Shown here: piece after piece, positions 24,474-50,580 of the stretch
Layout: the number at the start of each line of letters is the position of its first letter
Numbering within the stretch: position 1 is the stretch's first letter
Assembly (NCBI GenBank): GCA_000091205.1
Contig: AP006488.2
DNA: 64,000 nt
Source: Cyanidioschyzon merolae
Taxonomy: Eukaryota
Direction: 5' to 3' (one strand)
The notes under the pieces: model-generated
What the model was told of the DNA's origin: nothing
The model's input: only the letters and a program-made list of their open reading frames with translations
Database searches by the model: none
Position numbers and translations under genes: made by a program

Positions 24474-25508
24474 ATCGTGGTCAAGTGAACCTGTGCGACG
24501 TGTTCGAAGCGTCTCCTCACAAAGTCGCCGGCAGCGCTCGACACTCCCTAGACGTGAGCATCGTGCGCGCAGGCCGCGCGCCGAGGCACGATCATCCAGC
24601 GCGCGGCGACGTCGAATGCTGAATGATTTTTCCGATGACGAAACGTTGACATTGAGCAGGGACCCAGATTGCGGTATGGGTATTGGAACTCGGGAAAGCG
24701 TTCATTCTGATGCAGCACCAATGCCGTGACTGATGCTCTCTGCGTGCTGCATTTTCGATGCGAAAATTAGTAGCGAGTGGCGGGTGGGGGGGCCCACGCT
24801 AGCATGCCCCTGCAAGGGCATGCGATCCGTGCGAGCGCATTGCGCTGCTGCGCATTGAACTGCACTCAGCGCCGGGCAAGCTGCTGTATTTGCGCTAAAG
24901 CATCAACTGTGCGCCAGTCCGCATGTCGACAAGCGCATAGTCCCGCTACAGGTGCCATTCCTGACCAGAGCAATGACCGTGCGAGAGCCAGCCAGGGCGT
25001 CCGGTGCTCCACCAAGTCGCTGCGAAAAACGTGTTTTGACAATCGATGCAGCCACAGCGGTGCCTACTTCGACCACGAAGAAATACGGGTCCTGCCAATA
25101 GGCCAAGCACCAGTTGGCCAGTGTTGAGGCATCCGCCCGCCCGTTGCCCCCGGATATGCGTACCCTAGCGCTGCGAAAACGCCCCCTTGGGCAACGACAC
25201 CGCTTCCAAGGCAATGCACAAGTCTGCCATGTCGTCGATCGCTGGGCGCTGTTGCCTGCACCCAGCCACCGCACCAGGGTGAAGACACAACAGGGACAAT
25301 ATTGTACAGTTCATATCACCACCGACGTACATCGCGTCCATAGCGGACCGTGGCGCTACGCTCGAAAACGGACAACGTTATCCAACCCAGATCATCATTA
25401 CCCCTTATAGCCCAGACGACCGTCCCTGGCGATCGTCGCAACACAACGTCTTGTTAGAAATAATGGCACATAAGAGACATCGATCCACATATCCGCCGTT
25501 TCGATTTC

Positions 25509-32940: not shown

Positions 32941-33651
32941 ATGCTGGGAAACTCGGATACGCTGGAACCCGCACTTATCCTAACTTTCGAGCGGTTTGTC
33001 GCAGAAGTTGATCTGCTGGTGAAGAGCGAGGCTACGGTGCGTGTGGTAGCACGTCTGGGCCAAGTGTTGGCTGAACTCGGTCTCTTGGTACTAGAGTACC
33101 GACGGAAGCGGGTGTTGGCATATTTTAAGGGGCAACTTCCAAGCGACGTCTATATCGGGAGCTTGGTAGAGATTACTGGGCGCGTATACACCGTGTCTCG
33201 GAGGCGGCCTGGTGCCGAACACCAGCCGAATGGTGCAACTTTTCGGGGCGCTCGTGTGCCGGTATGGGTTTTCGACGAGCGCTTCGTCGGCCTTGGTGCA
33301 GGTCCTACGGGTACCTGGCTCTCAGACGGTGACGCGACCGACAGAAAGGGAGACGCTCCCACGAGCAAGGTCATTGTGGACGTGCTGACGTTGCGGACAA
33401 TGGCGGAGGGCTTCGATATCATGGCTTGGGAAGAGGTGCTTCGCGAACGCGAGTTCTATTTACGGGAGTATTTTGCGTGTCTGGCTGCTGCCGAAACACT
33501 CACGGATCAGACGGGAAAAGCGCCTCCGGTTCAGCAGCTCTATGAGGGAGCGGTCGCCGTTGAAGCCGCGCTGAGGACGGGTCCAGCAAAAGCCGCAGAC
33601 GGCACAGAGGAGGTCGCATGCAAGAGTCTCTCTCCAACAGCGAAGAACTAG
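32941..33651 (+). CDS. Hypothetical protein with a possible OB-fold-like segment (RPA32/Stn1-like?). The track ORF starts at a GTG at 32932; the first ATG is at 32941.
   Basis: Beta-rich segment YIGSLVEITGRVYTV...ATFRGARVPVWVFDE is reminiscent of an OB fold. This is a weak match. Confidence 0.3.
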   Translation: MLGNSDTLEPALILTFERFVAEVDLLVKSEATVRVVARLGQVLAELGLLVLEYRRKRVLAYFKGQLPSDVYIGSLVEITGRVYTVSRRRPGAEHQPNGATFRGARVPVWVFDERFVGLGAGPTGTWLSDGDATDRKGDAPTSKVIVDVLTLRTMAEGFDIMAWEEVLREREFYLREYFACLAAAETLTDQTGKAPPVQQLYEGAVAVEAALRTGPAKAADGTEEVACKSLSPTAKN

Positions 33652-34212
33652 AATGCACTTGGCAGCGTTGTATGCGGACGTCCATGTGGTGCATGAGGCC
33701 GACTGCGGTTCGCGTTGCTCCACGCGCACCTCGATGTGGAGCGAATGAAGCCTGTCGTTTGCTGCGCCCAATGCTGATCAACACACAGTGCGGGAAGCCA
33801 GCTGCAGTTCGTAGTACTCCACAAATCGCACGGGCATTGCCGTGATCAACTTGAGCATTCACCAGAGAGATGATGGAAACGCATCCATGTGGCATGGATG
33901 ACATGCAGCAGGGCTTGGAAAATTCCCCGCCAAACCGTACGCAGATCGTGGGTACTCGGCTATGTCGCTTGCGCAACCATACACGAAGCCACACATGTGC
34001 ACTCGGCGACATCCAAGATCACTGGTTCGTAAAAATACGAGCTGTGCTGTGCCATACCAGGGCAAGGACATTCCGCATCCTGCGAACGTCAGTCTAGCTT
34101 CCCGAAAAGCGCTGAGGCAGTCCCTGTAGTGCTCGTCAGGCACGAAGCAACCGTTGCGCAGCGCTTTGCGGGCACTAAACTCGCATCCAATCGTCGAAAC
34201 GCCTCCACGCTG

Positions 34213-35286
34213 CTAGGCAGTGCCGCCAACCTGTAAACCGAAACCAAACTTGTACTGCTGTTGCCAGTGGTCAATCTCCCCTGACAAAAGGAAACTCACC
34301 CCCGGACTCAGTTTCTCTTCCAGTAACGCGGCAACTTTTCCTAGCGAGGTCACCTGCCCTATCACAGTTGCAGATCGCAAATCAAACTTGTAGCCGGCCG
34401 TGACGTACGACTCCCGACTGCGAGTGTCCCAGAAGAGCTCCGCGGCTAGAGAGACTCGCGGATTCACTCGATGAACATATGAAGCTACCACGGGCCCGAA
34501 GCTGGCAACGGTTGCCGAGAATATCCCATCCGTTGTGAGGAACCTTGCAGCTGCCGTCAATGCACTGAACTTGTTCCGTAATTGGAAAAAGCCCTCACCA
34601 CCCATGGAAAACGAGGGAACAATACTCTGCATATAAGCTAGTGAGATCACACCACCTGTCCCTAGTTTGAGGTTTGCCGAGTAATCACTTCCCCGATAGT
34701 CCAAGTCGTACATGACAGTGGTGGTGGCACTCGTCGGCGGTGGCGGTTGTATCGCAGCTCCGCCAGTAGCCGCAGCCAACATAGCCGCAGCGGCTGCCGG
34801 ATCCTCCGCTGGTTGCCGACTCACTAAAAGCTTGGATATCAGACGTGGTGTATGGGTGTAGAAGAGACGTCCGTTGAACCGGCCGGTCATGTCCATCCGC
34901 GAAACCGCGATCAACGTATTCGTGATATAGTTCACAGAAAGCGCATAACCCGGCGTTGTTTGCGTGGAGCCCATCTCTATCGAGTGCCCGGTAGAAAGCG
35001 TGGGCGTCAGCGGAAGATTCATGTCAAAGCGGGTACCATCAAACAGGTTCGGCCGCAGCACGGTGTTCGCCTCTTGGTTGATCTCCTCGTAGGCGCCCGG
35101 GTTCGGTAACTCTGTTCGTTCGATTGCCCGCCACCACCAACTCGAAGATGTGTACGGGAGCGCATCCCGTAAACCGCTTGGCAACTCTTCACGCCGGATC
35201 GTCGTATCGCGACCCGGATACGAGTCCCGTGCGTGCGTCTCTTCACCAGCACCGGTGCCGGCGGTTGTTTTAAACGTGGACGCCAT
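34213..35286 (-). CDS. TOM40: TOM40 (mitochondrial outer-membrane translocase channel, eukaryotic porin superfamily)
   Basis: N-terminal NPGAYEEINQEA and C-terminal ...GEIDHWQQQYKFGFGLQVG match Tom40 hallmark segments. Beta-rich composition throughout. ATG at 35286 verified. Confidence 0.85.
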   Translation of the reverse strand: MASTFKTTAGTGAGEETHARDSYPGRDTTIRREELPSGLRDALPYTSSSWWWRAIERTELPNPGAYEEINQEANTVLRPNLFDGTRFDMNLPLTPTLSTGHSIEMGSTQTTPGYALSVNYITNTLIAVSRMDMTGRFNGRLFYTHTPRLISKLLVSRQPAEDPAAAAAMLAAATGGAAIQPPPPTSATTTVMYDLDYRGSDYSANLKLGTGGVISLAYMQSIVPSFSMGGEGFFQLRNKFSALTAAARFLTTDGIFSATVASFGPVVASYVHRVNPRVSLAAELFWDTRSRESYVTAGYKFDLRSATVIGQVTSLGKVAALLEEKLSPGVSFLLSGEIDHWQQQYKFGFGLQVGGTA

Positions 35287-35460
35287 AGAGGAGGCCAGGC
35301 ACTGTGCGAGTTACGTCGGAGACCCCGAGCTTAGGCGGGTTACTACGTGTATAACAATCCCAGCTACGCTGTATCCTTTGCGTCCAGACACGAGTCAGCG
35401 GGTTGAAGGTCTCGAGTGCAGTGCACTGGCGAGAAAAGAGCCCGCTGCTGCTGTCGTCGT

Positions 35461-35492
<32 letters not shown>

Positions 35493-36721
35493 AACAAGTA
35501 GAGGCACATTGGAACAGCAGCAGCAGCAGCGGCGGCGGCGGCGGCGCCCTGACGAATGGCGCGCCTACGCGACTTCTCAGCCTGCACCGGGCGAGGTTGC
35601 GCAGTTGCCTGGTGAATATATGCCTGTATCAAGAGTTGGGACTAGAAGGTGAAAGGTGGCGACACTGCTTCAGAGAAAACCGAGTATCGTATACGGTGTG
35701 CTAACGGGCAGTTTTTCGATGCTGCTGCGGTGTTTGATTGCTCCTGCAGCACCAAAGCATCGTTCAAATGCATCTCGAGTCTGGTGAGGATGCCGGGGGC
35801 ATTTTCATGACAATATGCGTTGGTATGGGATCATGAGCTGCCAGCTAGAAAGCAGATCCGCAGCGTGATACGACCTCCCGCTCGAATCAGAGCGTCCTGC
35901 ATTGGCATGCGAAACTTTGTCCGTCAGGGCGAGGTGTAGAGCGTGCGGCAGCTTTGTTTGCGAACAACGTCTGGCATCGTTACAAGTGAACAGCTTGTGA
36001 CAGGCACACACCGACGGGTATCGCAAGTCGCCTCCAGGGAGCCTACTTGCCGCACAAATATACATGCAGGCATGAACAGAGTCACCGCGAATCCCGATAC
36101 GCACACCAATGTGGGTGACGTGTCAACGCTTCGCGCTGGAGCGATGCACCAGACTTGCGGGAACACCAGAGAAACCGGTTATTTATGGACAAGGACATTA
36201 CACGCTGCACCAAAGACGAGCTCGGGGGCCTGCTCTAACCACCACACGCCAGCGATACTCCCGTGTTCATCGTATGCATGGGTGGAGGAAACGACGACGA
36301 CGACGACGACGCTCTCTCTGCTTGCGATCGAGTCGAGTACCCGTCGATATGATAGCCGTTCCCATTGGGCTTGAGCAAAAGTCGCTGCAGAACATCCTTA
36401 GCGCAGTTCGCTGCCCAAAAAGAACCAGTAAGGACTAGGCTCAATCTCGTGTACCTGAAATGAGGGAGTTTTGAGCATTCCCACGGCATCGTTCGAATCC
36501 AGCACATCCACGGCTGACGTATCCCGCTGTTGAGAGGCCAGGTTCATGGGGCAACGCTTGGCGCTCCATTGGGTACACTTTATAGACACTGGGGTCGCGT
36601 AACGCTTCATCGTGGCAAGAGAGTCGCGAGAGAGGGAGCGCTTCTCAAAAGCGCCGTGAACTGGAACCAGCCCCCGCAAGATAGTCCAGTGTTACCGAAC
36701 TAGTGGACAGTGTCTCCAGCG

Positions 36722-37501
36722 ATGCCCGGTTCCGAGGCGCGGAACCTCGCCGGACCCCCACACTCGTCGGGGCCCGAAACCCAGGTGCCCGTTGGTGCAC
36801 CAGCAAACGAGGACTCCCCCGAGCGCCACCAGGAGCCTGTCTTGAACGCCACCCAAGCAGCAGGCATTTCGTTCGGTGTGTTTGCGACGACTACGCTGAC
36901 GAGCGGGTATCTCGTTTACAGACTACGACGGCGGGAGCTGGCGTCGAGCCCAGAGTCGTCTTCGGGGCTCCAGCCGCTACCGAAAACCGTAGACGCTTGG
37001 ACCGAGCGCGGTACGTTGGTTGGCGATACCGCAGCAGTCCAAGCGGCAGCTGTACGGACAGCGTCACTTGCGCTCCTAAGCGGCACTTTGTTATGTGCGT
37101 CTTTCGGCTACATCGGTTGGCGGTTGCTGCTCTGGTACACAGGCACCAACGACCTGGAAAACTTCGCTACAGCGCTGAAGCAACCAAACAGCATGCCAAA
37201 GCGCTTGCGACGCAGCCTTGAAGAGGGGTCTCTCGGGCGTTCGCTGCGGAACTGGTATGCATCGATGACGACGGAGACTTTCGAGGATGCTGGGCGTTCA
37301 GGGATCCGGAGCATCGAACCAGCGGCGACTGGTGCTGTGGATACCGGGACGATGACCTGGCTTCAGAGGGTTGCGAACAGGGCACGTCGCTCAGGCCTCA
37401 TTCTATGGTTCCAGAAGCGAATGCACGGACCGTCGACCGAGGCGAACGGACATTCGCGTCCACCCAGAGAGACGTCTCCTTCGAACCCGACGTCTCCATG
37501 A
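36722..37501 (+). CDS. Hypothetical membrane protein with two predicted TM helices; first ATG at 36722
   Basis: Hydrophobic segments AAGISFGVFATTTLTSGYLVY and ASLALLSGTLLCASFGYIGWRLLLWY. No recognised domain. Confidence 0.35.
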   Translation: MPGSEARNLAGPPHSSGPETQVPVGAPANEDSPERHQEPVLNATQAAGISFGVFATTTLTSGYLVYRLRRRELASSPESSSGLQPLPKTVDAWTERGTLVGDTAAVQAAAVRTASLALLSGTLLCASFGYIGWRLLLWYTGTNDLENFATALKQPNSMPKRLRRSLEEGSLGRSLRNWYASMTTETFEDAGRSGIRSIEPAATGAVDTGTMTWLQRVANRARRSGLILWFQKRMHGPSTEANGHSRPPRETSPSNPTSP

Positions 37502-38389
37502 CGCCACTTTGATGTGCAAGCATGCGGAAACGGACGCCCCGCGGCCTTTGAGGTACGCTCCGGACGGTGGTATGCACCTCTCGGACGAGTGCAGATCGCC
37601 AATTCGAGCTGTTCATGCAGCGGGTCTCTCGATCCGGGGCTCTCTCATGGATATGCTCCATCTACAGCGTCATGGGCGATGGATATGTAATGGAATGTTC
37701 GTTTCATGCGAATATTCAACCGGCCTGCAATGACGATACCCGGGGGAATCATGTTGGTGTACAGAGCGCGCTGCTTGTGCCAAAGACAAACTGTCGTTAC
37801 GAATAGGCTATGATGTCGTGGCAAGGCAGCGCCTATGAGCGTTATGGACGCTCACCTATCTGCTAGCTCGCGTGCAGCTTGGCCAGCTTCCCCGGGGGGT
37901 ACCTTCGCTCATTTGCATTCGAGAGCGAGGATTTTTGCTTTAGGGCTCGCGTGACTGACATACGATGCCCACCAATCAACGGATATCGGCGTCTGGTAGA
38001 CACCGGCAGATGCAGTCGGCACCAGGTTGCAGATGCTGCAGCGCCGAGGCGCCACGGAGCATCGACCTGCAGCTGCCCTTGGTGTACGCAGTGAGGAGCA
38101 GCGACACCTATGCTGGACGCACCGAAGATGTGTCCGCGACGATACGGCACATGGGTATGCACTCAGAGACGCCTCACAGCCTTTTTTTGACAGGGCGCTT
38201 GCTATCGGTTTCGACTTCTCCTTGTATTCGTCGACCGTGGGAGATTGCTCCACAATGCTAGATCTCGTCAACTCCGGAGGTCTCGTCTTCAGCACCGCAC
38301 ATCGTCTCATATTGATGGCGGCGTGAAAGTCTCGGTTCGCGGAGTCCGTGTGTTTCCTGCCGCCGCTGGTTGAACTCACAAGAGCGAGT

Positions 38390-40700
38390 CGTCCTCGAAC
38401 TTTCGCCCTCGTTTACATTTCCTATTATATCAGAGCTCCGTACTTTTCTGTATCCTCAGGGCTCGGCTGGCACTTTTCCAACTCGACCCTCTGAATTGCA
38501 CATCCCAGCTCATGTTGCATGTGTGACGTTCGAAACGCATCTATCGCTATTGTGACGAAACAGTGTGCGCACTCTTTGTGCGCACTTGTCGACGGAGCAG
38601 GTATGCTTTCTTTTCCGGGTACCCAGCGCCCTGCTCCATACGCTACTACGAGTCTTTGACTCTTGACTTCCTCGAGGGCACTCAACGGAATGATAAAGTT
38701 GGCAAAGGCACGCTGCTTCCCACAGAGCAGATTCACACGCAGACGAGCCCACCGTGGCTTTGTATATTCTTTCCACAGCGCCTCGTCATGACCAACACGA
38801 ACTTGCATGAATTCCAGAAAAGCTTCCAAGTCCGCTCCGCGGCTCGATGCCTGGCTGATCGCTTCCAAATGCTCCTTCACTCCTGTACTCCACTTCTCAA
38901 TTTTCTTCCTTGCATTCATTATCCCTGACTCTCGCTAATATCTCGCTCGTGAGAATCTCAGAATACGTATGTCTTTTTGGCGCAAGTTGCCGTCGATACC
39001 ATCTTCTACATGCTTGGGTGCTGCGATGGTCATGATAATCATGTTCCCGGGGACCGCGCCGACGATAAAGTTGTTCTGCTGCACATCCGGGGTCGCAGGG
39101 CCCGCCTCCTTGTCTTCTTCGTGTTACGTCAAGGGCGAAGCCGAGGACAGAACAGGACGATCCGCCTTCGAGCGCCGATAGTCGACAAATATGGCTTCTC
39201 CATCAGTTTCGATCATCCCAGTGAATATCTTTTGCTTGCTCGCTTTGAGACGCTCGAAATCGAAGGTATTCTTCCAGTGCGTCTCCCGGATTTCACGGGT
39301 GAACTCCTTCTTGCTTACATCGAACTCCGGACAGATCTCCTTCATGACGCCGTAAAGGACTCTGGGATCGATTGTCACGAAGGGTGACTTGATGTTGCAT
39401 AATGGAACAACATTGGAGCACTGTTCCGGTAGGGAACCCTTCCGTTTCAACTACTCTTCATTTGCTTCCGCCAAGCAGCTCCTGTTCGGCCATGCGTTCG
39501 AGTTCTCGGTCCAAAAACACGAAATAGTGCAGGATGAGGGGATACCATCTTTTCCATCTTTTTTTTCGAATCTGATATGTTTTATGCTGGGTTGACAAGC
39601 CCCAGCACCGCAGGGTGCTTTCGAATCGCCGCATGGATCACAGAAGCTTCATTCTTTCTCGCGTGTGATGTCTTCTTGTCGACGAATTCGATCTCCTGTT
39701 CATGCTGGCGATTGTTCGTGATGCCGTCGATGACGGCCCATGTCCTCTTTGCGAGAGAGGCCCGGGTACAGCGCAGAGATAGAGCATATCATGAAGCTTT
39801 TGAGGCTCACGATCCTATGATTCTTCATGTTCGTGAGGCATTTGATTGCCCCGTAAGTATCAATATCAGTGCCACCCTGTATCTAGAACCGTTGAAGCAG
39901 CATTGGGGGTGATTTTCGTGGATGGCGTGCACTCGCTCATTTCTCCTCGGCGTTTCCCCTGTGCCAAGCATCAGGCAAGGAATAAGTGTCTAGTTGAAAA
40001 ATTCCTCCCGAATCTCGACTGTTTCCATGTGCATTATGTCGTTATACATCTCCCTCGCCATATGCATTAGTCCTAGAGAAGCGTGACAAGCACTCTTGGA
40101 GTGGGACGCGACACGGTTTCTGACTGCCTCTCGCAACTTTAGCTCATACGCATCCTTGATATGTCCAAGAAGACGGGCTTTCACCAATATCTCGCGGTAC
40201 TATCGTCTTAATTGCAGCGCTTCATTCAGGGCCTGCCTCTTTTGCTCCTTCGTCTTCTCATGCTCCTCTTTGCTTGGCACTGTTTTCCGTTTTTTTTTCC
40301 GACAGCCGGCGACATCTGCCCACTAGGACCCTCCACTACGTTTTCCGTAACACTCCTTTTTTCGTTTGAAAACGAATCCGCTTTGAACACGTCTGCTATA
40401 AACTGTGAAAAAGCACTTGAAGACCCTAATCTGAGTATGGAACGCCATTGAATTAAAAGACGATGCTACGACTTTAGCAGCGTTACATCTTGTCCGTCAG
40501 AGCAAAACGCTAACGGTCAGGATTGCGTTTCCGGTCAACTTCGAGATACGCGCCGTATCTCATGCTTGCCAGATACGGAGGTGCGCGTATCGAACGCGCT
40601 TTATCGAAAAAATAACAGATAGCAACCACTTACTAGCCAATTGGTAACATTTTCTTTCCCGCTTTACGGTAAACTCTGAACGCGGAAAACGTTTGCAGAA
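38390..40700. mobile_element. AT-rich compositional island (about 35-45% GC against about 60% background) carrying decayed ORFs; candidate transposon or virus-derived insertion remnant
   Basis: Abrupt base-composition shift visible by eye (e.g. 39541-39600 is about 35% GC). It contains the interrupted reading frame described in the next feature. No clear terminal inverted repeats were found. Confidence 0.4.
38425..39990 (-). pseudogene. Decayed Cys-rich reading frame (single frame of about 520 codons with about 7 in-frame stops) bearing a weak TnpB/Fanzor OrfB-type Zn-ribbon-like motif
   Basis: Track ORFs 39124..39450(-) and 38425..38919(-) are in the same frame, separated only by TAA (39126-39124) and TAG (38937-38935). 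The same frame continues upstream with few stops (...SFCDPCGDSKAPCGAGAC...). The C-terminal segment ...LVVAYGAGRWVPGKESIPAPSTSAHKECAHCFV... loosely resembles the TSxxCxxC lead-in of the TnpB/Fanzor Zn ribbon. A possible RuvC-I-like FVTIDPRV...IETDGEAI is also present. Confidence 0.35.
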
Positions 40701-41512
40701 CTTCGGGTGTTTACCTCCCAGGAGGAAGGTCCCGCAAACCGGACGAGTCTCCCAGGCTGGTTCTTCATGATCCGTAGGGGCGGGTGCAGTCGCGCGACCC
40801 GAGCAACTCGTCCGCGCTGCAGTTTATCCTGGATTAGGAGCGGGTATGCTGCGTTTGGACGTCACCCTGGACGCGGTGGACGCCCAGTGCATCACGTTGC
40901 GCTGCGGCAATCTGTAGGTCTGTCTGCGCAGCCTGCATGCTCCCAGCATGATAATGAATCTCGACCCCGTATCGCGCAAACTACACCTCAAGCTGATGCC
41001 GTCATCGATATGGCAAAGCGATTCTGTCTCCGTGATGCGTCTGCTCAAATGGTTTAGGTGCGCTTGCTGGAGCTCAAAGCAGGTACTCAGAGCTCGATGA
41101 AACGTACAAAATAACCAGTGCATTCGAGAACAAGTCATGGAACTTGAAGGTAAGGTGCAGCAGCATGATGGACGCTTTCCCGGATACCAATATCCATCCA
41201 ACCATTCCATGATCCCGCGATCTGAGATCCAAGGTCTCAGCAAACGGTTTGTCATCGACGCTGGCCGCCAGCGCACCCTTTACGCGGTATGCGTCATCTA
41301 GGCTCATATTGGACTATATTTGTATAAAAAGGAAAATAACGAACTCTATTTCCCGAACTGCAGCGATCGTCGTACAATGCAATGCAGGCAGCGCCTTCGT
41401 CACAGCGTCTGCTCCAACTTCTCCCTCGCTGCCAGAAGTTGTGCACTTGTCCCATCTGCCCAGTCCTGTGCGCCACGTTGCATAGCTCGGGGCTTGAGTT
41501 GCCCTGAACAGC

Positions 41513-42499
41513 ATGAGCACCGGTTTACGACACTGTATCCGGGCTGTCGGGCGACTCGTGCGGACGCTCTGTACGCAGGCGGAAACTGCTGCTCGCAGTT
41601 CGGGGCCACACGTGCCGCCTCTGCGGCTGCGGCTGCCGCCGCCGAACACTGAGCCAGTGGCCGAACTGTATGGACGCTTCGTTCGACGCATCGGTGTCGT
41701 TGCGCGAAAGATCGGCATGCTACCACACTGGGACGCAAACGGTGTCTACCGTTGTGTGACGGTCCTGCACATCGATAACAACCACGTGATCCAGGTTAAA
41801 CAGCTACCGAGCAACGCGTCGAATCTGAAAGGACTCTCCGAATGGAGCGTTCAAATCGGAGCGGGATCTATGCGACCCTACCAGGCCAAAAAGCCGCATC
41901 GTTATCACTGCGCCTACGCCGGGACCGACGTCAAGGAGAAGCTGGTGGAGTTTCGGGTCGCTCCCGCTGCTGCCGCCTGCATCGAGCCGGGGACGCCCAT
42001 CACTGCGCGTCACTTTATCCCTGGCCAGTACCTGGATGTGATCGGTACGAGCATTGGCAAAGGATTTCAAGGTGCGATGAAACGCCACGGATTCGGAGGA
42101 TTACCTGCATCCCATGGCGTTTCGCTTACGCACCGCTCGCTCGGTGCGACAGGGCAACGTCAGGACCCTGGTCGAGTCTTTAAAGGCAAGCGCATGCCTG
42201 GTCGCATGGGCGGGGAGCGAACCACCGTCCAGAGTCTACGACTGGAACGCGTCGACTGCAAACGAAACTTGCTCTTCGTTTCGGGGCCGGTTCCTGGTCA
42301 TACAGGCAACTGGGTGCTGGTTCGTGATGCAGTCAAAAAAAGTGGTCTCAAGTGGTGGGCAGAGCTCCCGCACTTGCCTCCTTTTCCGACTTTTGTTGCC
42401 GATCCACAGCAGCAGGTCGAGCATGAAGCACCCGCTGATTGGTTTGCAGCACCCCGCCGCAATGTCTGGTTACAGGAGGTGCTCTCGGCCCGAGCTTAG
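41513..42499 (+). CDS. MRPL3: Organellar (mitochondrial-type, bacterial-like) ribosomal protein uL3 with an N-terminal presequence
   Basis: uL3 core GKGFQGAMKRHGFGGLPASHGVSLTHRSLGATGQRQDPGRVFKGKRMPGRMGGERTTVQSLRLERVD...LLFVSGPVPGHTGNWVLVRDAVKK. ATG at 41513 verified. Confidence 0.9.
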   Translation: MSTGLRHCIRAVGRLVRTLCTQAETAARSSGPHVPPLRLRLPPPNTEPVAELYGRFVRRIGVVARKIGMLPHWDANGVYRCVTVLHIDNNHVIQVKQLPSNASNLKGLSEWSVQIGAGSMRPYQAKKPHRYHCAYAGTDVKEKLVEFRVAPAAAACIEPGTPITARHFIPGQYLDVIGTSIGKGFQGAMKRHGFGGLPASHGVSLTHRSLGATGQRQDPGRVFKGKRMPGRMGGERTTVQSLRLERVDCKRNLLFVSGPVPGHTGNWVLVRDAVKKSGLKWWAELPHLPPFPTFVADPQQQVEHEAPADWFAAPRRNVWLQEVLSARA

Positions 42500-42550
42500 T
42501 GAATCTTCTAGATCCATGTGGGAAAAAATGGAACCGGTGGCCTTACTCGG

Positions 42551-42566
42551 GCACACACACACACAC
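42551..42566. repeat. (CA)8 dinucleotide microsatellite
   Basis: Direct reading. Confidence 0.9.
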
Positions 42567-43507
42567 ACTAAAGTTTGCGCCTGCACTCATTGTCTTCATG
42601 AATACCAGCCTTGGCGGGCATTGTCTGCCACTGCATTCTGTTGCGCTCTCGCTCTACATCAGGAACGGAGGGCAATGGAGACATCTGCTTATCAGTTGGA
42701 TGGTGGTAGCGGTTGTTTTTCGAACCGCGTGTTCGAGGGCACCTCGGAATCTCTCACTTCCCGTGACGTAACGAAATCTAGCGACAACGAGCCCAAATAG
42801 CCGCTCCAAAAAGTTGACCCAGAAGCCTCTAACGATAGATGGATGCGTAAGTCTTTATTTCAGCATTTCGAACATGGAGGCTGTACATCGGAGAAACTCA
42901 AAAAAAAAGACGAAAAGCAGAAACAGAGCCACTAGTTCAGCGTTCCATTTTAATCTGAAACAGTTCCAGAACCGGTTCATGACGGGAAATTTCGTGGATA
43001 ACGCCAGCTTCTATGCGAGAGCATAGGCGCGCGAGATGTCTGGCTTGCAAAAGCGGCGCTGTGATTACGGAACACCGCGCCTTGGGTATCGTCCGGCAAC
43101 GAGGCAATGTCAGTGTACGGATGTACCGCAGAGGCTCCCAGCTCAGGACGTTCTCGGGCGAAAAAATAATGTGCTGTGCTGTGCTGTGCAGTGCTGGGGA
43201 CGCATCTTGGGACGTGCATCCAGCTGTCGCCCTCGGTAGGTCGAGACAAGTTGCGCTCTGCTCGGGTGTATCCGCAGCGAAGCCGAACGTTCCAGGCAAT
43301 CTGTTTGATACATCGCCGCTGGCGATGTGCAGCCGCTCGCACGCGACCGCAGCCAGGCATGGTGCGCTATCCCCGCGCACCAGGCGCGTTGTCGTCAGCG
43401 GTCCAGATGCGGTGCCGTTTGGGCCGATGCCTCTACCCGAAGCCAGTGGCCAGCACCGGAAGCGTCACTGGTCTCCAGGCCGCGACCCTAACGCAACAAC
43501 GATCCGC

Positions 43508-45853
43508 TCAGGGAGGTGAGGCGCCCACCTGCATTGACTGAATGGTGCTGATCCGTTCTCCGCCGTCCGTCGCCGCGGCATCTCGTGTAGCGGAAGCGGC
43601 ATCTGGTTCCGTGATGCCTCTCTTGCCAACAGATGCTGTCTCTGCTGCTCGGCGTCGTTCGCGCTCCAGCCATACCAGAAGGATGAGGATATCGGCGGGC
43701 TTGACGCCACCTACCTGCGTCGCCTGACCCAGCGTTGCCGGGCGAATCTTGCTCAATCGATCCATGCTTTCGCGGCTGAGCTGCGTGATCGAGTAGTAAT
43801 CAATATCATCAGGGATCTTTCGTCCATATTCCGCCTTGATTCGGCGAACAGTCTCTTGCTGCTGGTCAATATATCCTTGGTATTTGATGCGAGTCTCCAG
43901 TGTCTCCCAGTCGAAGACCGTCATGTTGGGTTCGGAATCCGCAAGCACACCAACTTGCTTCAGCACACTGAGACTCAACCGTGGCCGACGAAGCAGATCT
44001 GCCAGCGAAACATTCGCTGCGATCTTTCCGACATCACATTGTTGCTGAATGAGAAGTGCCTCTTCGCTGTCGCCGCGAAGCATTGTCGTTTCCAGCCGCA
44101 TCCGTTGGCGCTCAATGCGTTTCAGCTTCTCTTGGAAGATATTCCAGCGACGATCGTCAATGAGGCCGATACTTCGACCCAGCGGCGTCATTCGTTCGTC
44201 GGCATTATCTGCGCGCAGGAGCAGCCGATATTCAGATCGAGAGGTAAGCACGCGATACGGTTCATCGAGCTCTTTTGTGCAGAGATCATCGATCATCACC
44301 CCAAGAAACGAGTCTTCGCGATCCAGCATGACGAGGTCAGCGTCACTGCCCCGCTTGGCAAACTGCGCGGCGTTCACGCCAGCAATGATCCCCTGCGCCG
44401 CAGCCTCCTCGTAGCCGGTCGTCCCGAGCACCTGCCCAGCGAGGAAGAGCCCCTCGATCTTCTTGCTGTGCAGTGTGTGATACACCTGCCATCCCGGAAG
44501 GTAGTCGTAATCAACGGAGTACGCGGGTCGGACCATTCGGCATCGCTCAAGGCCAGGTATGGACTGAAGCATCGCAAGCTGAATCGATTCCGGCATGCCG
44601 GTGGAGAAGCCCTGCACGTAGACTTCGGGAATGGTGCGACCCTCTGGCTCGATGAAAATCTGATGGCTTTCTTTCTCTGCGAAGCGAACGATCTTATCCT
44701 CGATGCTTGGACAGTACCTCGGCCCTGTTGAGCACATGAAGCCACCATACTTGGGAGTTAAATGGAGGTTCTCACGAATAATACGGTGGGTCTCCGCCGT
44801 CGTTCGCGTCAAATAGCACGGCATCGTGTCGCTCCGGGGGTTCCATTCGGCGGGGTCGAAGCTGAACCAATGATCCTCAGGATCGGATGGTTGCGGTTCC
44901 ATAACCGTATAGTCGATGGTTCGGCCGTCGACACGCGGCGGCGTTCCCGTCTTCAAGCGACCTGTCTCAAATCCCATTCGCTGCAAAGTCTCTGTGAGCC
45001 CGAACGATGCCGGCTCGCCTGCGCGACCCGCAGGCATGGACTTGTTGCCTACCCAGATCGTGCCGCCAAGAAACGTCCCCGTTGTTAAGACCACCGCACG
45101 TGCCCGGAATGCGCCCCCAAAATACGTCTCCACGCCCACGACTTCACCATTTGGACCCAGAGCCAAATCGTAGACCATTCCTTCACGAATCTCGAGGTTT
45201 TCAGCTTCCTCCAGAACTCGACGCATCTCCGCTGAATACTCTCGCTTGTCCGTTTGTGCACGCAGCGCCCATACCGCTGGACCCTTGCCACGGTTCAGGA
45301 CACGCCGCTGCAGATACGTTCGATCGGCGATCTTGCCGATCCATCCACCAAGAGCGTCGACTTCATGAACGAGCGTCGATTTTGCTGGTCCGCCAACCGC
45401 TGGATTACAAGGTTGCCAGGCGATACGGTCCAGATTCAGGGTCAAGAGGAGCGTGCGCGCTCCTAAACGAGCAGAGGCAAGTGCCGCTTCGCAGCCGGAG
45501 TGCCCAGCACCGATGACTATGACATCGTACTCGCCTTCGGGGTAGAGCGGTCCACCCCGCGAAGAACGCATACTTTGTGCCTGATTCGAAAAGTGCTCCG
45601 CAGGTAAGCTCGGTGCCGGTAACGGTGACGGCGCCTGCGAGGGCCGCGACGACGAGCCTTCCTCGACACCTTGCTGCGATGCACGTAGGCCAGTGCGATG
45701 TTGCCGGAACAAATGACGCCCTGAACTGGGACACAACCACCCGTTGGTGCTCCTCGTCGTCTGCAGCTCAAGTTGGCGTGAACTGCGCGACTCGCACCAC
45801 TTGGTTGCCCCGGAATGAAACACTCTTGAGAAACTAAGTTCGGCTAGGAACAT
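43508..45853 (-). CDS. MTO1: tRNA uridine 5-carboxymethylaminomethyl modification enzyme MnmG/GidA homolog (mitochondrial MTO1-type). The track ORF starts at a GTG at 45913; the first ATG is at 45853.
   Basis: FAD-binding start YDVIVIGAGHSGCEAALASARLGARTLLLT. The conserved MnmG core is present throughout (GPRYCPSIEDKIVRF, FLAGQVLGTTGYEEAAAQG, and the C-terminal GVKPADILILLVWLE). Confidence 0.95.
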   Translation of the reverse strand: MFLAELSFSRVFHSGATKWCESRSSRQLELQTTRSTNGWLCPSSGRHLFRQHRTGLRASQQGVEEGSSSRPSQAPSPLPAPSLPAEHFSNQAQSMRSSRGGPLYPEGEYDVIVIGAGHSGCEAALASARLGARTLLLTLNLDRIAWQPCNPAVGGPAKSTLVHEVDALGGWIGKIADRTYLQRRVLNRGKGPAVWALRAQTDKREYSAEMRRVLEEAENLEIREGMVYDLALGPNGEVVGVETYFGGAFRARAVVLTTGTFLGGTIWVGNKSMPAGRAGEPASFGLTETLQRMGFETGRLKTGTPPRVDGRTIDYTVMEPQPSDPEDHWFSFDPAEWNPRSDTMPCYLTRTTAETHRIIRENLHLTPKYGGFMCSTGPRYCPSIEDKIVRFAEKESHQIFIEPEGRTIPEVYVQGFSTGMPESIQLAMLQSIPGLERCRMVRPAYSVDYDYLPGWQVYHTLHSKKIEGLFLAGQVLGTTGYEEAAAQGIIAGVNAAQFAKRGSDADLVMLDREDSFLGVMIDDLCTKELDEPYRVLTSRSEYRLLLRADNADERMTPLGRSIGLIDDRRWNIFQEKLKRIERQRMRLETTMLRGDSEEALLIQQQCDVGKIAANVSLADLLRRPRLSLSVLKQVGVLADSEPNMTVFDWETLETRIKYQGYIDQQQETVRRIKAEYGRKIPDDIDYYSITQLSRESMDRLSKIRPATLGQATQVGGVKPADILILLVWLERERRRAAETASVGKRGITEPDAASATRDAAATDGGERISTIQSMQVGASPP

Positions 45854-46130
45854 GATGGAAAAGATCGCACCGTACAGCGCCTTGCGTTCCGCGGGACGCT
45901 CCGGTGGCGTCACGTTGCACGTAAACGTCCCAACCTGTCACGCACAACTAGAGCACGTTACCCAAAAAAGTAGGCCAAGTAGATACGTCAAACAAACAAC
46001 TCCAAAAGCCTTCGAACCGGGAACTTTTCCTGTTCCCTGTGTCCAGAAGCGCTCAGAAGGCACTTACACCACGAAAAGCAACACGTTGTCTAGTGCACGG
46101 TGACACGCATTCCTCGAAGCACGCATGCCT

Positions 46131-46251
46131 GCCGTCGCTGCTGCTGCTGCGATCTAATGGACAGGTCCATTCGGGGCGTCGCTGCTGCTGCCGTCGCTGC
46201 TGCTGCCGTCGCTGCTGCTGCTGCGATCTGATGGACAGGTCGATTCGGGGC

Positions 46252-46297
<46 letters not shown>
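46131..46297. repeat. Complex repeat: approximately 50-60-bp unit (GCTGCTGCTGCGATCTRATGGACAGGTCSATTCGGGGCGTC) duplicated in tandem, followed by (GCT)~16
   Basis: Direct reading. Located in the divergent intergenic region between MTO1 (-) and OGDH (+). Confidence 0.85.
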
Positions 46298-46298
<1 letters not shown>

Positions 46299-47379
46299 AT
46301 ATCTTGCGATGCGGGAGGCAGGGCGCTGGACCGCTCCTGTTCGGGGTCGGATCGCTGGATGGAGCATCCAACGCCACTTTTAGTGTTCGATGAATAGCGG
46401 GTGGCTATCCGGAAAGAGGCCACCGTTCGTCTGCGGACGCGTTCGCACGCAGCCAACTTCAGACTAGTTTTTCCGTCGGGAATAGAGGCTCGGTGGATAC
46501 AGGTACCGTGTGGGTACCGATTCTGTCGCAGACGTTTGCTGCGACGCAGGATGGATACTGCAGGGAAACAGGATATCGCTGCAAGCGTCGGCCCGAAGAG
46601 GCGCTGCATAGACGCGCAGAGGATTTTCAGCGGTGCGTCGGTTTCTCGTGATGCGTGGCGAGCGCAGCGTGATACGGAAGGCGGATGTACCTCAGCGGAA
46701 GATGACGCACTGGGATCTGTTTGCTCGCTGAGCATCGCCGATAGAAAACGCTCGCTCAGCGAAACACGCGGCTGTTGGAGGCGCAGTCCACGGGATTCGG
46801 CATCGACCTGCTTCTGTATGCGACTTGCGCCGCCGCGCATCCATAGCGACGACAAATGTTCCCAGGCAGCTTGGTACCCGCAAGCCCGCTGGATCTAGCT
46901 TCTATTCCGGACGAAAGGACCAGTCTGGAGTTTTAGAAAATGCGAAAGCGTCTGTGAAGGATCACTCGTCGTCGCCTCTTCCCTGGCTGGTGGCGCCGAT
47001 CGCACATCCAGAGATGCATTCGGTTCGATGCACCGACTCGGCATCATCAAACTGGGTATGATCATCACGGATCCCGATATCCATCACGCAATCGGGCATC
47101 TCTGATTCTTGCAAACCATCCCACAACTCAGAAAACGTAAAACAAGTAAGACGCGTGTTATCATCTTTCACTTTATGATGTAGCTCTTTCTAGCGCTGCC
47201 TGCGGCGCTTTTCGAGACAGCGGCCGCGAATCCAGCCGCTGAACGCGATCGAGCACCATCATCGGGAGGCGTCACGCTGGTGCCTGGCGCTGTGACGGAG
47301 CGCATGACTCTATCGCTTCGCGTTGCCCACTAGTACCCGTTTCGTGAACTCGCTGGAGGAACACCTGGGAGAAGGCGCC

Positions 47380-50300
47380 ATGCTTCGTGTCGTTCGGGCC
47401 CTGAACCCGATTCTGTTCCGTTCATTGTCTCCAACAGGTGTTAGCAAGCGACTGCTGGGGCTAACTGGCTGTAACGTGTTGGGTGCTCGTTTGTTGAGCA
47501 CTGCTAGCGCCAGCAGTAGCAGTGATGCAGCGACAGGCGCAGCAGCAGCAGCAGCAGCGGCAACAGCTGCGCAGACGACGCACCGTCAACCTACGTTAGC
47601 TGAATCTGGCCTTTCTAGTGCTGAGGACTTTCTTAATGGAACCAATGCAAACGTGCTGGAAGAGATGTACGAGTTGTGGCTCCGAGAGCCCTCCAAAGTC
47701 CACGGCAGCTGGCAGGCGTTCTTCCGTAATATCGAGACGGGTGCCCCGTTAGGCCAAGCGACAAGCTTGCTCAGCCGGCCTCAGCGGGAGCGCATCTCCC
47801 GTGCGGCACCTTCGGTAACCGCAGGTCGGGACGTTCTGGAGGTTGCGCGGGACACAGTGCGAGTTATGTCGATGATTCGCGCCTTTCGCCACCGCGGTCA
47901 CCTGGTCGCCAACCTGGATCCACTGAACCTGTCTCAGGCAAGCGGTCACGTTGTAGCCGGTGCGCACGAGGAGTCTGCATTGAGTCCAGCGAGAGTGCGC
48001 TACGATTTGGATCCCGTCTCCTACGGTTTCACTGAAGCGGACATGGATCGAATTTTCTACGTAGGCGGTGACTTGCCGGGGCGTCCGCTGCGAACCTTGC
48101 GTGAGATTCACAGCATGCTGAAGAATGCATATTGTGGAACCATCGGCTTCGAATACCGCCACATGCTCAGCAAAGAGGAAAAAGACTGGATCGCATCACG
48201 GGTGGAGGTGTTCGGCCCGATGTTTCGTTTCACACCGGAAGAGAAGCGACAAATTTGGAACTTCACAGCGGAAGCGGAGCTATTTGAAAAATTCCTTTCC
48301 TACAAGTATGCAACTGCAAAACGTTTTGGTCTCGAGGGTGGAGAAAGCATCATTCCCGGCATTCAAGCGATGCTCTTGCGCGGCAGCGAGCTCGGTATCG
48401 AAAACGTCATCATTGGCATGCCTCATCGTGGACGCCTGAACGTGCTGGCCCAGGTAGTGAAGAAACCGCTGGAGCAGATCTTCCATGAATTTAATCCAGA
48501 CGAGAGCCGTACTCGGGTCTATCTCGCTGGTGGATCCGGTGACGTGAAATACCACCTGGGCACCAGCTCAGATCGAACCTTAGCCAACGGAAAACAGATG
48601 CATCTTTCTTTGGTCGCCAACCCGAGTCATTTGGAGGCGGTAGATCCCGTTGTAGTCGGGAAAACCCGGGCCAAGCAGTTCTTCACATACGATGTAGATC
48701 GCCGCCGCACGATGGCGCTCCTGCTGCACGGCGACGCGGCGTTCGCTGGCCAAGGCGTGGTGGCGGAAACCCTAGAACTAAGTGATCTGCATGACTATAC
48801 CATCGGTGGTACGGTACACGTGATTATTAACAATCAGATTGGCTTCACCACGGACCCAAAGCATGCACGCTCATCACCCTACCCGACGGATGTGGCGAAA
48901 TGTGTCGGCATTCCGATATTCCACGTGAACGGCGATGATGTGGAGGCAGTCGTTCACGTTTTCCGCTTAGCCATCGAGTACCGTCAACGCTTCCGCAAGG
49001 ATGTAGTGGTGGATGTCTTCTGTTACCGCCGCCATGGCCATAATGAATTGGATGAACCGTCTTTCACCCAGCCGCTGATGTACAAGAAAATAGCGGCACA
49101 TCCCACGATCTTGCAACTGTACACGCATCGTTTGGTGAATGAGCAGATTGTTCAGCCGAGCGAGGTCCAGCAGATGCGCGACCAGCACATGCGTCGGTAC
49201 GAAATCAGCTTCCGCAATGCCCCGAACTGGAAACCCCGCGATAGCGACTGGCTCGCCTCGCACTGGAAGGGATTCAAATCGGAGTTTCAGTTGAGTCCGA
49301 TTCGTCAGACTGGCGTCGATCGCGATGTGCTGATGCGCGTTGGCCGGGCGCTTTGTCGTATTCCGGAAAGTCTGCATATCCATCCGCATTTGAAGCGCCT
49401 CCTGGAGCATCGCAAGCAGATGCTCGAAGGCGAGATCGGTATCGACTGGGCACTCGCTGAACAGCTCGCGTTTGGAGCACTCATGTGTGAGGGCACGCAC
49501 GTGCGTCTCAGCGGCCAAGACAGCGAACGCGGGACGTTCTCCCAACGTCATGCCGCCCTGATCGACCAGGATACCGAGGAGCGTTACGTGCCGCTGGATC
49601 ATATTGAGGGCGATCCTCCGGGACAGTTCCGCGTGTGCAACTCCTCACTCAGCGAATACGCTGTGCTCGGCTTCGAAGTGGGGTACTCTTTGGAATCCCC
49701 GCGGGCACTGGTGATGCACGAAGCTCAGTTTGGCGACTTTATGAATGGCGCCCAAGTGATCATTGATGAATTTATCGCGTCTGGTGAGAAGAAATGGCGT
49801 CGTCAGTGCGGTATCACCATGCTCTTACCGCACAGCTTCGGGGGCCAGGGTCCCGACCATTCCTCCGCACGACTGGAACGCTTCCTCCAACTCGCCGACG
49901 ATGACCCGGACGAGATCCCGGCTGAACTCGGCATGGACAACCGTATGCAGATTCAGCGCGCGAACCTTCAAGTTGTGAACGCGACCACCCCGGCAAACTA
50001 CTTCCACGTGCTTCGACGCCAGATTCACCGCGACTTTCGAAAGCCCCTCATCCTGCTGACGCCGAAAGAGCTATTGCGCTTGCCGGAATGCCGCTCGCCG
50101 CTCGCCGACTTTCTCACCGGCACTCGTTTCCATCGGCTGATCCCGGAAACGGACCCCGAGATCGCTACCGGTGAGAAAACGCGTCGCTTGATTTTCTGCC
50201 AGGGAAAGGTTTACTACGAGCTCGTTGCCGAGCGAAAGAAACGCCAGATCCGGGATGTCTCCATTGTGCGCCTGGAGCAGATCTCACCGTTCCCGTACGA

Positions 50301-50580
50301 TCGAGTTGCGGAAACGCTCAGCGCTTATCCGAAAGCGGAACTGGTCTGGTGTCAGGAGGAACCCAAGAACGCCGGTGCTTGGTTCTATGTGCAGCCGCGC
50401 ATCCGCACGACCCTGCGAGGTCTCATCGACGAGGCACACGGCAAGCACCGGGTAGTGGCGTACGCTGGGCGCAAACCAGCAGCGGCACCGGCTACCGGTA
50501 TCTACACGATCCACGTTGCCGAGCAGAAGGAGCTGATCGATCAGGCGCTAAGCGATGAACCGTTGCCCGTCACCGTCTGA
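47380..50580 (+). CDS. OGDH: 2-oxoglutarate dehydrogenase E1 component (mitochondrial). The track ORF starts at a TTG at 47323; the first ATG is at 47380 (MLRVVRALNPILFRSLSP..., presequence-like).
   Basis: Collinear E1o hallmarks: SWQAFFRN, MIRAFRHRGHLVANLDPL, GMPHRGRLNVLAQVV, the ThDP-binding region HGDAAFAGQGVVAETL, and C-terminal WCQEEPKNAGAWFYVQPR. Confidence 0.95.
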   Translation: MLRVVRALNPILFRSLSPTGVSKRLLGLTGCNVLGARLLSTASASSSSDAATGAAAAAAAATAAQTTHRQPTLAESGLSSAEDFLNGTNANVLEEMYELWLREPSKVHGSWQAFFRNIETGAPLGQATSLLSRPQRERISRAAPSVTAGRDVLEVARDTVRVMSMIRAFRHRGHLVANLDPLNLSQASGHVVAGAHEESALSPARVRYDLDPVSYGFTEADMDRIFYVGGDLPGRPLRTLREIHSMLKNAYCGTIGFEYRHMLSKEEKDWIASRVEVFGPMFRFTPEEKRQIWNFTAEAELFEKFLSYKYATAKRFGLEGGESIIPGIQAMLLRGSELGIENVIIGMPHRGRLNVLAQVVKKPLEQIFHEFNPDESRTRVYLAGGSGDVKYHLGTSSDRTLANGKQMHLSLVANPSHLEAVDPVVVGKTRAKQFFTYDVDRRRTMALLLHGDAAFAGQGVVAETLELSDLHDYTIGGTVHVIINNQIGFTTDPKHARSSPYPTDVAKCVGIPIFHVNGDDVEAVVHVFRLAIEYRQRFRKDVVVDVFCYRRHGHNELDEPSFTQPLMYKKIAAHPTILQLYTHRLVNEQIVQPSEVQQMRDQHMRRYEISFRNAPNWKPRDSDWLASHWKGFKSEFQLSPIRQTGVDRDVLMRVGRALCRIPESLHIHPHLKRLLEHRKQMLEGEIGIDWALAEQLAFGALMCEGTHVRLSGQDSERGTFSQRHAALIDQDTEERYVPLDHIEGDPPGQFRVCNSSLSEYAVLGFEVGYSLESPRALVMHEAQFGDFMNGAQVIIDEFIASGEKKWRRQCGITMLLPHSFGGQGPDHSSARLERFLQLADDDPDEIPAELGMDNRMQIQRANLQVVNATTPANYFHVLRRQIHRDFRKPLILLTPKELLRLPECRSPLADFLTGTRFHRLIPETDPEIATGEKTRRLIFCQGKVYYELVAERKKRQIRDVSIVRLEQISPFPYDRVAETLSAYPKAELVWCQEEPKNAGAWFYVQPRIRTTLRGLIDEAHGKHRVVAYAGRKPAAAPATGIYTIHVAEQKELIDQALSDEPLPVTV

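Follow-up and report, generated by a model that had tools for sequence, protein, structure and literature searches.

A low-GC stretch beside uL3m in Cyanidioschyzon merolae is almost certainly a decayed copy of the Fanzor1 repeat CMe-1A

Between the genes for a small membrane protein and for uL3m, the 64,000-nucleotide stretch of Cyanidioschyzon merolae DNA analysed here (the window) drops in GC content and carries a long, interrupted reading frame on the minus strand, which raises the question of what this DNA is. An earlier note, made from the letters alone, had proposed a decayed TnpB/Fanzor-like gene or a viral insertion in an AT-rich island at 38390-40700. The dip in composition is real: the GC fraction is 0.494, whereas the window overall has 0.563 and stretches of 2311 nt have a median of 0.566, and no other stretch of this length in the 64 kb is as low. 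However, the 35-45% GC given for it was too low, as the lowest 200-nt window has a value of 0.43, and a strong AT skew is not seen, the published CMe-1A consensus itself having 52% GC. The minus-strand frame from 39990 to 38425, said to have some 520 codons and about 7 stops, contains 8 stops in 522 codons where its base composition would predict about 25.7 (binomial P=3.4e-5), so the deficit stands with a corrected count. The other two sense frames over the same interval contain 24 and 12 stops, and a cruder test, taking the six-frame minimum in mononucleotide shuffles of 38300-39990, gives a p of ~0.009. The ORFs at 39124..39450 and 38425..38919 do share one frame, as had been suggested, and the coding frame extends below 38425, at least to 38254. 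Three ORFs of the window are exact matches to proteins of C. merolae 10D (BAM79446, BAM79438 and BAM79444).

The low-GC stretch, which runs from 41257 to 38167 on the minus strand, is almost certainly an old, decayed copy of CMe-1A, one of about 150 in this genome. Using the consensus sequence from the supplement of PMC3627910, blastn aligns consensus positions 1-3082 (of 3169) to 41257..38167 with 79.8% identity over 3111 aligned columns, including 49 gaps. The element is thus larger than the 38390-40700 originally delimited, and paralogous copies (loci L001-L083) have the same extent. Bao & Jurka (2013; Mobile DNA 4:12, PMC3627910) reported about 150 CMe-1A copies, each about 80% identical to a consensus of about 3 kb, and the identity found here matches that divergence. 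In their supplementary table the consensus is 3169 bp long, the protein has 734 aa and TIRs are absent; CMe-1 is classed as Fanzor1, and some copies are still intact (PMC3627910). What had been called a foreign-looking, unannotatable island is therefore an ordinary repeat that was already catalogued in 2013, and the copy in the window is inactive. CMe-1A is a 3.2-kb non-autonomous transposable element, with the 734-aa Fanzor1, a eukaryotic homologue of TnpB, as its sole gene.

The near full-length copy (38167..41257) can be divided into three parts, all on the minus strand. The 5′ segment at 40611..41257 corresponds to consensus 1-635 (78.6% identity by pairwise alignment) and begins at 41257 with the terminus CGATGACAAACCG; in the consensus, this part is 95% identical to a separate 635-bp repeat, TE-N2_CMe (Bao & Jurka, PMC3627910). 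It is followed by a leader at 40349..40610 (consensus 636-905; 79% identity), which separates the TE-N2-like part from the Fanzor1 ORF, and then by the Fanzor1 (CMe-1) pseudogene at 38167..40348, which a codon-level alignment matches to consensus codons 1 to ~726 of 734 at 81% nucleotide identity and which is found by tblastn with the homologue P0002 at E=8e-175. The last 87 nt of the consensus (3083-3169) are not recognisable in window positions 37950-38166, where the Smith-Waterman score is 25 compared to 22.3 +/- 4.1 for shuffles.

The Fanzor1 assignment can be followed at the protein level. The stop-corrected translation has 162 homologues, the best with E=2.7e-164, and a profile of these reaches 1448 clusters at 50% identity. 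When a deeper profile of 64 full-length relatives (A2) is compared to the PDB, it matches the pre-RuvC region and split RuvC of the solved Fanzor1 proteins of Parasitella parasitica (9cf0, E=7.5e-20), Spizellomyces punctatus (8gkh, 3.6e-12) and Guillardia theta (9cer, 1.3e-5), the DPG, EFRT and NRD..A..N motifs of profile and structures being in register. The A2 family HMM in turn matches the window translation with E=4.4e-92 and 1.4e-20. These matches, together with the alignment to CMe-1A, bear out the proposal of a decayed TnpB/Fanzor-like transposon gene. The check that had been suggested, a Pfam/HMM search of the stop-corrected translation, would have misled: Pfam-A and NCBIfam find no family at E<=10 in the 650-aa translation, so that taking their silence as grounds for rejection would wrongly discard a Fanzor identity that holds. 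Pfam-A likewise finds nothing relevant in five intact close homologues, and the family's only label in Pfam is PF26935/DUF8286; standard domain libraries thus miss the Fanzor1 lineage of CMe-1. Neither the shallow profile A1 nor the CMe-1 consensus protein by itself reaches a solved Fanzor in the PDB, both giving only chance matches such as angiogenin, and the Fanzor link therefore comes from the deeper profile A2 and the 2013 paper. An AlphaFold2 model of P0002 built on the 16-sequence alignment A1 had a mean pLDDT of 40.8, too poor for a fold search.

The family differs from the solved proteins in its zinc ribbon. The four zinc-ribbon cysteines of Parasitella Fanzor1 face residues other than cysteine in both the family consensus and CMe-1 in the profile alignment, the CxxC...CxxxxC pattern being replaced by TSYTHHELGC...GLLALVSTT in the CMe-1 consensus, although a C4 zinc ribbon, located in Fanzor1 proteins from the Glu to RuvC-III, is listed as a defining Fanzor motif in PMC3627910. 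The zinc-ribbon family PF07282 has no match in the window copy or its close homologues, and weak ones in a few distant relatives (best E=0.0023).

Comparison with the consensus codon by codon shows how far the gene has decayed. The former start codon (40346..40348, minus strand) is now ACG. There are nine in-frame stops, starting at 40202, 39992, 39584, 39453, 39126, 38937, 38427, 38424 and 38415, and decay was not by single stop codons only, as had been supposed, since the ancestral frame is also broken by seven frameshifting indels, at about 40298 (+2), 39878 (-1), 39746 (+1), 39556 (+1), 39470 (+1), 38188 (+1) and 38166 (+4). With roughly 20% divergence from the consensus in addition to these lesions, the gene can hardly be called recently pseudogenised. 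Relative to the consensus ORF there are 87 synonymous and 235 non-synonymous codon changes, and the substitutions look neutral. Two of the three active-site residues are changed. At the RuvC-I catalytic Asp site (39052..39054, minus strand; D431 in the consensus, within GADPGN) the window copy has Val; this column is an invariant D in A2 and aligns to the DPGR and DPNK of solved Fanzor1 proteins. The conserved Glu site (38536..38538, minus strand; consensus E603, VDEFRTS) has become Ala, in a column that is an invariant E in A2 and aligns to the IDEFRTS of Parasitella Fanzor1; we infer that E603 is the RuvC-II Glu that, according to PMC10530073, has been relocated in Fanzors. The RuvC-III Asp (38329..38331, minus strand; consensus D672, NRDFNAAINI) is retained, aligning to the NRD..A..N of the solved proteins, and the triad of the window copy thus reads V, A, D. 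The copy is a dead member of Fanzor1, with its start lost, nine stops, seven frameshifts and two of three active-site residues changed.

The ancestral frame also changes how several of the motifs read from the raw translation should be viewed. The product had been described as Cys-rich, but CDPCGDSKAPCGAGAC and SSCTISC (39642-39517) come from a stretch bounded by frameshifts in which the ancestral frame is a different one and reads NEASVIHAAIRKHPAVLGLVNPA, so this character is a consequence of out-of-frame translation across the frameshifts. The segment IPAPSTSAHKECAHC, said to resemble loosely the TSxxCxxC motif before the zinc ribbon, was misplaced: its real counterpart, IDAFRTSHMQHELGC, lies 7 residues further downstream and corresponds to VDEFRTSYTHHELGC of the consensus and IDEFRTSSFCPKC of Parasitella Fanzor1. 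Similarly, FVTIDPRV...IETDGEAI, proposed as a possible RuvC-I-like segment, is a conserved N-terminal motif pair of Fanzor1, and the RuvC-I consensus is GADPGNTNIITIA.

Though dead as a gene, the copy might have been co-opted, for instance to yield a non-coding or guide RNA or to serve within the regulatory region upstream of uL3m. For this speaks the position of the element's 5′ end, 256 bp from the uL3m start codon, and the persistence of the insertion: when we sought an empty site, it was present in all four of the four orthologous contigs, which come from near-identical strains. However, the element behaves like intergenic DNA between strains or changes slightly faster than genes, with 0.39-0.49% substitutions compared to 0.09-0.38% in the flanking genes. 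The neutral-looking codon changes argue in the same direction, the copy has lost its 3′ end, the part of Fanzor elements that encodes the guide RNA, and Rfam has no match in the whole window. We therefore regard co-option as very improbable; the insertion is fixed in those strains and drifting. The copy is almost certainly inert, neutrally drifting DNA in a 4-kb spacer from the small membrane-protein gene to uL3m, and its presence explains why this spacer is unusually long and lower in GC than the surrounding genes.

Even less probable, to the point of being close to negligible, is the viral alternative, in which the region would be what is left of an insertion by a giant virus (NCLDV) or another virus that happened to carry a TnpB-like gene. 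Fanzors do occur in large dsDNA viruses (PMC3627910), and the GC content of the region is below that of host genes, but only by 5-7 points. The homologous DNA is instead a well-delimited unit of 3.1 kb whose 5′ end recurs, dispersed as hundreds of repeats in contigs of C. merolae type, and there is no other viral-type gene in or beside it: the flanking genes (Tom40, the small membrane protein and uL3m) are all host genes. The idea that the frame arose by chance in intergenic DNA of lower GC content, or is a decayed host gene of no known family and unrelated to transposons, could draw on the silence of Pfam and NCBIfam but is ruled out by the stop deficit (P=3.4e-5), by the homologues and the A2 match, and by the 80% of nucleotides shared with the published consensus of a transposon over 3.1 kb.

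The earlier note had suggested a search for further copies, and we found 361 loci related to the element in metagenome assemblies. Copies are 81-88% identical to the CMe-1A consensus, and those contigs of these assemblies that we checked have 99.2% identity to the window. Copies of CMe-1A and TE-N2_CMe have a common 5′ end and differing 3′ ends (consensus 1-83, 1-282, 1-635 and 1-3169). Most other copies have a T-run at the 5′ junction, and TTT is found at the 3′ junction. The termini show weak inverted similarity only (14/20, by eye). No signal of a target-site duplication was found among 22 distinct insertions, where flank pairs score 5.09 when matched compared to 5.27 when unmatched (permutation p=0.77), and the flanks of the window copy likewise contain no repeat. 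We had considered an antisense SINE-like retroposon, in which the 5′ T-run would be a poly(A) tail and the shorter copies a truncation series, but this is unsupported and was dropped because the 22 insertions show no such duplication. Most of 32 tails are predicted to end in a hairpin, and compensatory variants occur (GTTCGA/TCGAAC and GTTCTA/TAGAAC), but the mean z-score is only -0.7. When the 3′ 300 nt of 22 copies are folded together by RNAalifold, the covariation term is only -0.27 kcal/mol, essentially no support. The window copy does not have the 3′ end that bears this hairpin. Elsewhere in the window, a possible second relic at 54.2-55.1 kb comes only from tblastn with P0002 (E=1e-7) and weak HMM matches; tblastn with the consensus protein has no match there.

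The window copy agrees with CMe-1A in being from the same genome, in its collinearity over 1-3082, in the 5′ terminus CGATGACAAA.CG, in the TE-N2_CMe-like segment and in having a single Fanzor1 ORF. It differs in having no recognisable last 87 nt, which include two 3′ hairpins present in other copies, in having no T-run before its 5′ end as most copies do, and in its destroyed ORF, which is intact in some copies according to the paper. With the solved Fanzor1 proteins, the CMe-1 family also shares a transposon setting and a basic, NLS-like N-terminus, though the likeness is at the level of profiles, as single sequences do not match. Bacterial TnpB proteins (IS200/IS605, IS607) are of common ancestry (PMC3627910, PMC10530073) and are similarly transposon-borne accessory nucleases rather than transposases, but CMe-1A has no TnpA-type gene, and the A2 profile finds no TnpB structure in the PDB at E<=1.

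Other Fanzors have been shown to cut DNA beside a TAM under the guidance of an RNA (PMC10530073), and we infer guide-RNA-directed cutting for CMe-1. In active elements, the Fanzor protein would bind a guide RNA transcribed at the element's 3′ end and cut matching DNA with its single RuvC site. The copy in the window cannot do this, with its start codon, frame and two active-site residues gone and the last 87 nt unrecognisable.

As the outcome of a genome scan the locus is a clean negative, an inactive and catalogued repeat, and any wider interest would lie in the CMe-1 family rather than in this dead copy. We consider it a possibility, though a rather unlikely one, that this family holds both a zinc-ribbon-less Fanzor1 lineage and a single-strand or rolling-circle form of transposition. 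For the first part, the 1448 clusters, the loss of the C4 zinc ribbon and the retained Asp/Glu/Asp triad suggest that the lineage may represent an RNA-guided nuclease of a thermo-acidophile that does without a zinc ribbon, and a Fanzor1 of this kind from a thermo-acidophilic alga would make the family of modest interest. For the second, the common 5′ ends with variable 3′ ends, the T-runs at the junctions, the 3′ hairpin and the lack of a detectable target-site duplication would fit a single-strand or rolling-circle mode (Helitron2- or IS200/605-like), in which a T-rich sequence may be the target or TAM. A similar picture is found in the Fanzor1-carrying Helitron2 elements of Chlamydomonas (CRe-1/2/3, PMC3627910), which are also non-autonomous, without TIRs or a detectable target-site duplication, and have a 3′ terminal hairpin, a T-rich 5′ junction and copies with a common 5′ end and differing 3′ ends. 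Helitron2-like elements are also marked by asymmetric terminal inverted repeats and a RepHel partner element, and such repeats could not be demonstrated for CMe-1A. Those who defined Helitron2 did not assign CMe-1A to any class (PMC3627910), and such a mode, if true, would classify it.

The published CMe-1A consensus, a C. merolae transposable element carrying a Fanzor1 gene, was taken from the supplement of PMC3627910 (Bao & Jurka 2013). Its positions 1-3082 align to 41257..38167 of the window (minus strand) with 79.8% identity, which makes the locus a nearly full-length copy of CMe-1A, already known in the sense that it belongs to a family named in 2013. An earlier note on this DNA had placed a decayed TnpB/Fanzor-like gene or a viral remnant at 38390-40700. 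Of these, the Fanzor-like gene is right, given the match to the consensus and that to a Fanzor1 profile (below); neither the viral alternative nor the proposed motif assignments were borne out, and the element extends beyond the noted coordinates, by about 560 bp on the upstream side and about 220 bp on the downstream side. According to PMC3627910, CMe-1A is the single Fanzor1 family in the C. merolae genome, with about 150 copies, each ~80% identical to a 3169 bp consensus that encodes a 734-aa protein. It has no TIRs, TSDs are not determinable, its class is unknown, and its first 635 bp are common to the repeat TE-N2_CMe. The window ORFs for uL3m, Tom40 and a conserved hypothetical protein match exactly the C. 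merolae 10D proteins BAM79446, BAM79444 and BAM79438, respectively.

No family was found in the stop-corrected translation of the window copy with Pfam-A or NCBIfam. A large protein collection gave 162 homologues (best E=2.7e-164, 55-66% identity), all metagenomic and with DUF8286 (PF26935) as their sole Pfam label. Intact homologues show GADPGNTNIITIA, VDEFRTS and NRDFNAAINI, which are the three signatures of the TnpB/Fanzor RuvC domain. The first profile, A1, was built from 16 close homologues and matched no solved structure; an exhaustive search with it returned 1448 clusters, many with full-length proteins of 600-740 aa. A second profile built from 64 of these (A2) matched Fanzor1 of Parasitella parasitica (9cf0; E=7.5e-20), Spizellomyces punctatus (8gkh; E=3.6e-12) and Guillardia theta (9cer; E=1.3e-5), with the DPG, EFRT and NRD..A..N motifs in register between A2 and the solved proteins. 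The six-frame translation of the window matched A2 at 39480-38251 (E=4.4e-92) and 40265-39879 (E=1.4e-20). Judged by profile homology and the original 2013 classification, the CMe-1A protein belongs to Fanzor1. Within that group CMe-1 is unusual, since it has no C4 zinc ribbon, all four cysteines being replaced; the zinc-ribbon model PF07282 did not match CMe-1 and gave weak, sub-threshold matches in a few distant family members. This Fanzor1 lineage (proteins P0001-P0268) is represented in Pfam only as DUF8286 (PF26935).

The region 38390-40700 is the lowest-GC 2.3-kb stretch within the 64 kb, at 0.494 compared to 0.563 for the whole window and a median of 0.566 for windows of the same size. 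The compositional island noted earlier is thus real as a dip of about 7 points, but not at the 35-45% GC proposed, the lowest 200-nt window being 0.43. The minus frame 39990..38425 has 8 stops in 522 codons where base composition predicts ~25.7 (binomial P=3.4e-5), an open-frame signal therefore beyond chance; in the remaining two sense frames the stops number 24 and 12. The two ORFs singled out previously do share one frame, which runs on below 38425 to at least 38254, while the N-terminal third of the product lies in different frames owing to frameshifts. The strings at 39642-39517 that seemed Cys-rich come from reading out of frame in the interval between two frameshifts.

Decay was scored by comparison with the ORF of the consensus (positions 906-3110, which correspond to the window from 40348 downward). 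The start codon position reads ACG, and the ORF carries seven frameshifting indels and nine in-frame stops (40202, 39992, 39584, 39453, 39126, 38937, 38427, 38424 and 38415). The 87 synonymous and 235 non-synonymous codon changes are what neutral decay yields. On the minus strand, the RuvC-I Asp D431 (39054-39052) is Val and the invariant Glu of VDEFRTS, E603 (38538-38536), is Ala; the RuvC-III Asp D672 (38331-38329) is kept. The alignment suggests that E603 is probably the relocated RuvC-II glutamate, essential in Fanzors (Jiang et al., PMC10530073); the canonical upstream position is Gly, in VVAYGAG. The same insertion is found in orthologous contigs of four metagenome assemblies (L084-L087, JGI samples 3300005573, 3300005861, 3300050357 and 3300051093), which match the window at 99.2-99.4% identity over 17 kb (33506-50500), so these environmental assemblies contain near-clonal C. 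merolae. Between-strain substitutions amount to 0.39-0.49% in the element versus 0.09-0.38% in neighbouring genes. The shared insertion and these rates indicate an element that is fixed and drifting; the idea of a recent pseudogenisation did not hold.

Fanzor proteins bind a guide RNA that is encoded at the 3′ end of their transposon and reads into the flank, and cut guide-matching DNA beside a short TAM using a single RuvC site (PMC10530073). By analogy, intact CMe-1 copies would perform the same guide-RNA-directed cutting. The window copy is unable to make the Fanzor1 protein, and the 3′ end that would encode the guide is missing from it. The final 87 nt of the consensus are not recognisable in the window. 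For the other CMe-1 copies there is no good evidence of a conserved guide-RNA fold (RNAalifold covariation term -0.27); a hairpin at the extreme 3′ terminus is predicted in most, with compensatory variants. In L029, L021, L009, L081, L061 and other related metagenomic loci (consensus 3108-3169) this hairpin is CGTTTTTC-TTTT-GAAAGGCG, and sub-families have GTTCGA-CTT-TCGAAC and GTTCTA-CTT-TAGAAC, a compensatory double change. A second stem, GCCGCCA...TGGCGGC, precedes the terminal hairpin in the consensus and some copies, and the flank after it usually opens with TTTG. The terminal hairpin part is missing from the window copy.

The related loci L001-L083 were drawn from the metagenome assemblies that also yielded the near-identical orthologous contigs, and hence most likely represent paralogues within C. 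merolae-type genomes. The copies have a sharp common 5′ end, usually just after a T-run, and TTT follows the 3′ end of full-length ones. Several short copies begin at consensus position 1 and end at differing points. Two lie within the window on the plus strand, at 18627-18914 (consensus 1-282, 77%) and 24633-24714 (consensus 1-83, 83%), both 5′-end fragments of CMe-1A/TE-N2_CMe that fit this pattern of shared 5′ end and variable 3′ truncation; each starts exactly at position 1 after a T-run (ATTTTTTT, GATTTTTC). No TSD signal was seen among copies (p=0.77), and a retroposon reading was dropped for lack of TSDs. A rolling-circle or single-strand mechanism could account for these features of the family; we offer it as a hypothesis. 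The TE-N2_CMe-like part, consensus 1 to ~650, is absent from many paralogues, which gives CMe-1A the look of a composite element with at least two 5′ architectures. Loci without this part (L002-L012, L019-L023, L040, L059, L065, L069 and others) start at consensus 638-689, and this start is often directly preceded by a piece of consensus 84-282 in inverted orientation. At L002/L003, a divergent reverse-transcriptase ORF (RVT_1; 814-2710, minus strand) just upstream of such a copy is probably an unrelated retroelement insertion. Directly upstream of the RuvC-I Asp lies an in-frame tandem repeat of 75-80 nt (window 39054-39133; consensus 2117-2196), whose product of ~25 aa has the form KHEEKKEADPATQEVQDNDFVVGA. 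The window and the consensus have one unit of it, whereas many paralogues (e.g. L023, L035, L065, L016) have 2-6.

A probable second Fanzor1-like relic, much older, lies at 54236-55142 (minus strand) between two long minus-strand ORFs. Neither the CMe-1 consensus protein nor blastn with the consensus matched there; tblastn with the homologous protein P0002 did (24% identity, E=1e-7), as did three collinear weak HMM matches to A1 and one to A2 (i-E 4.6e-8).
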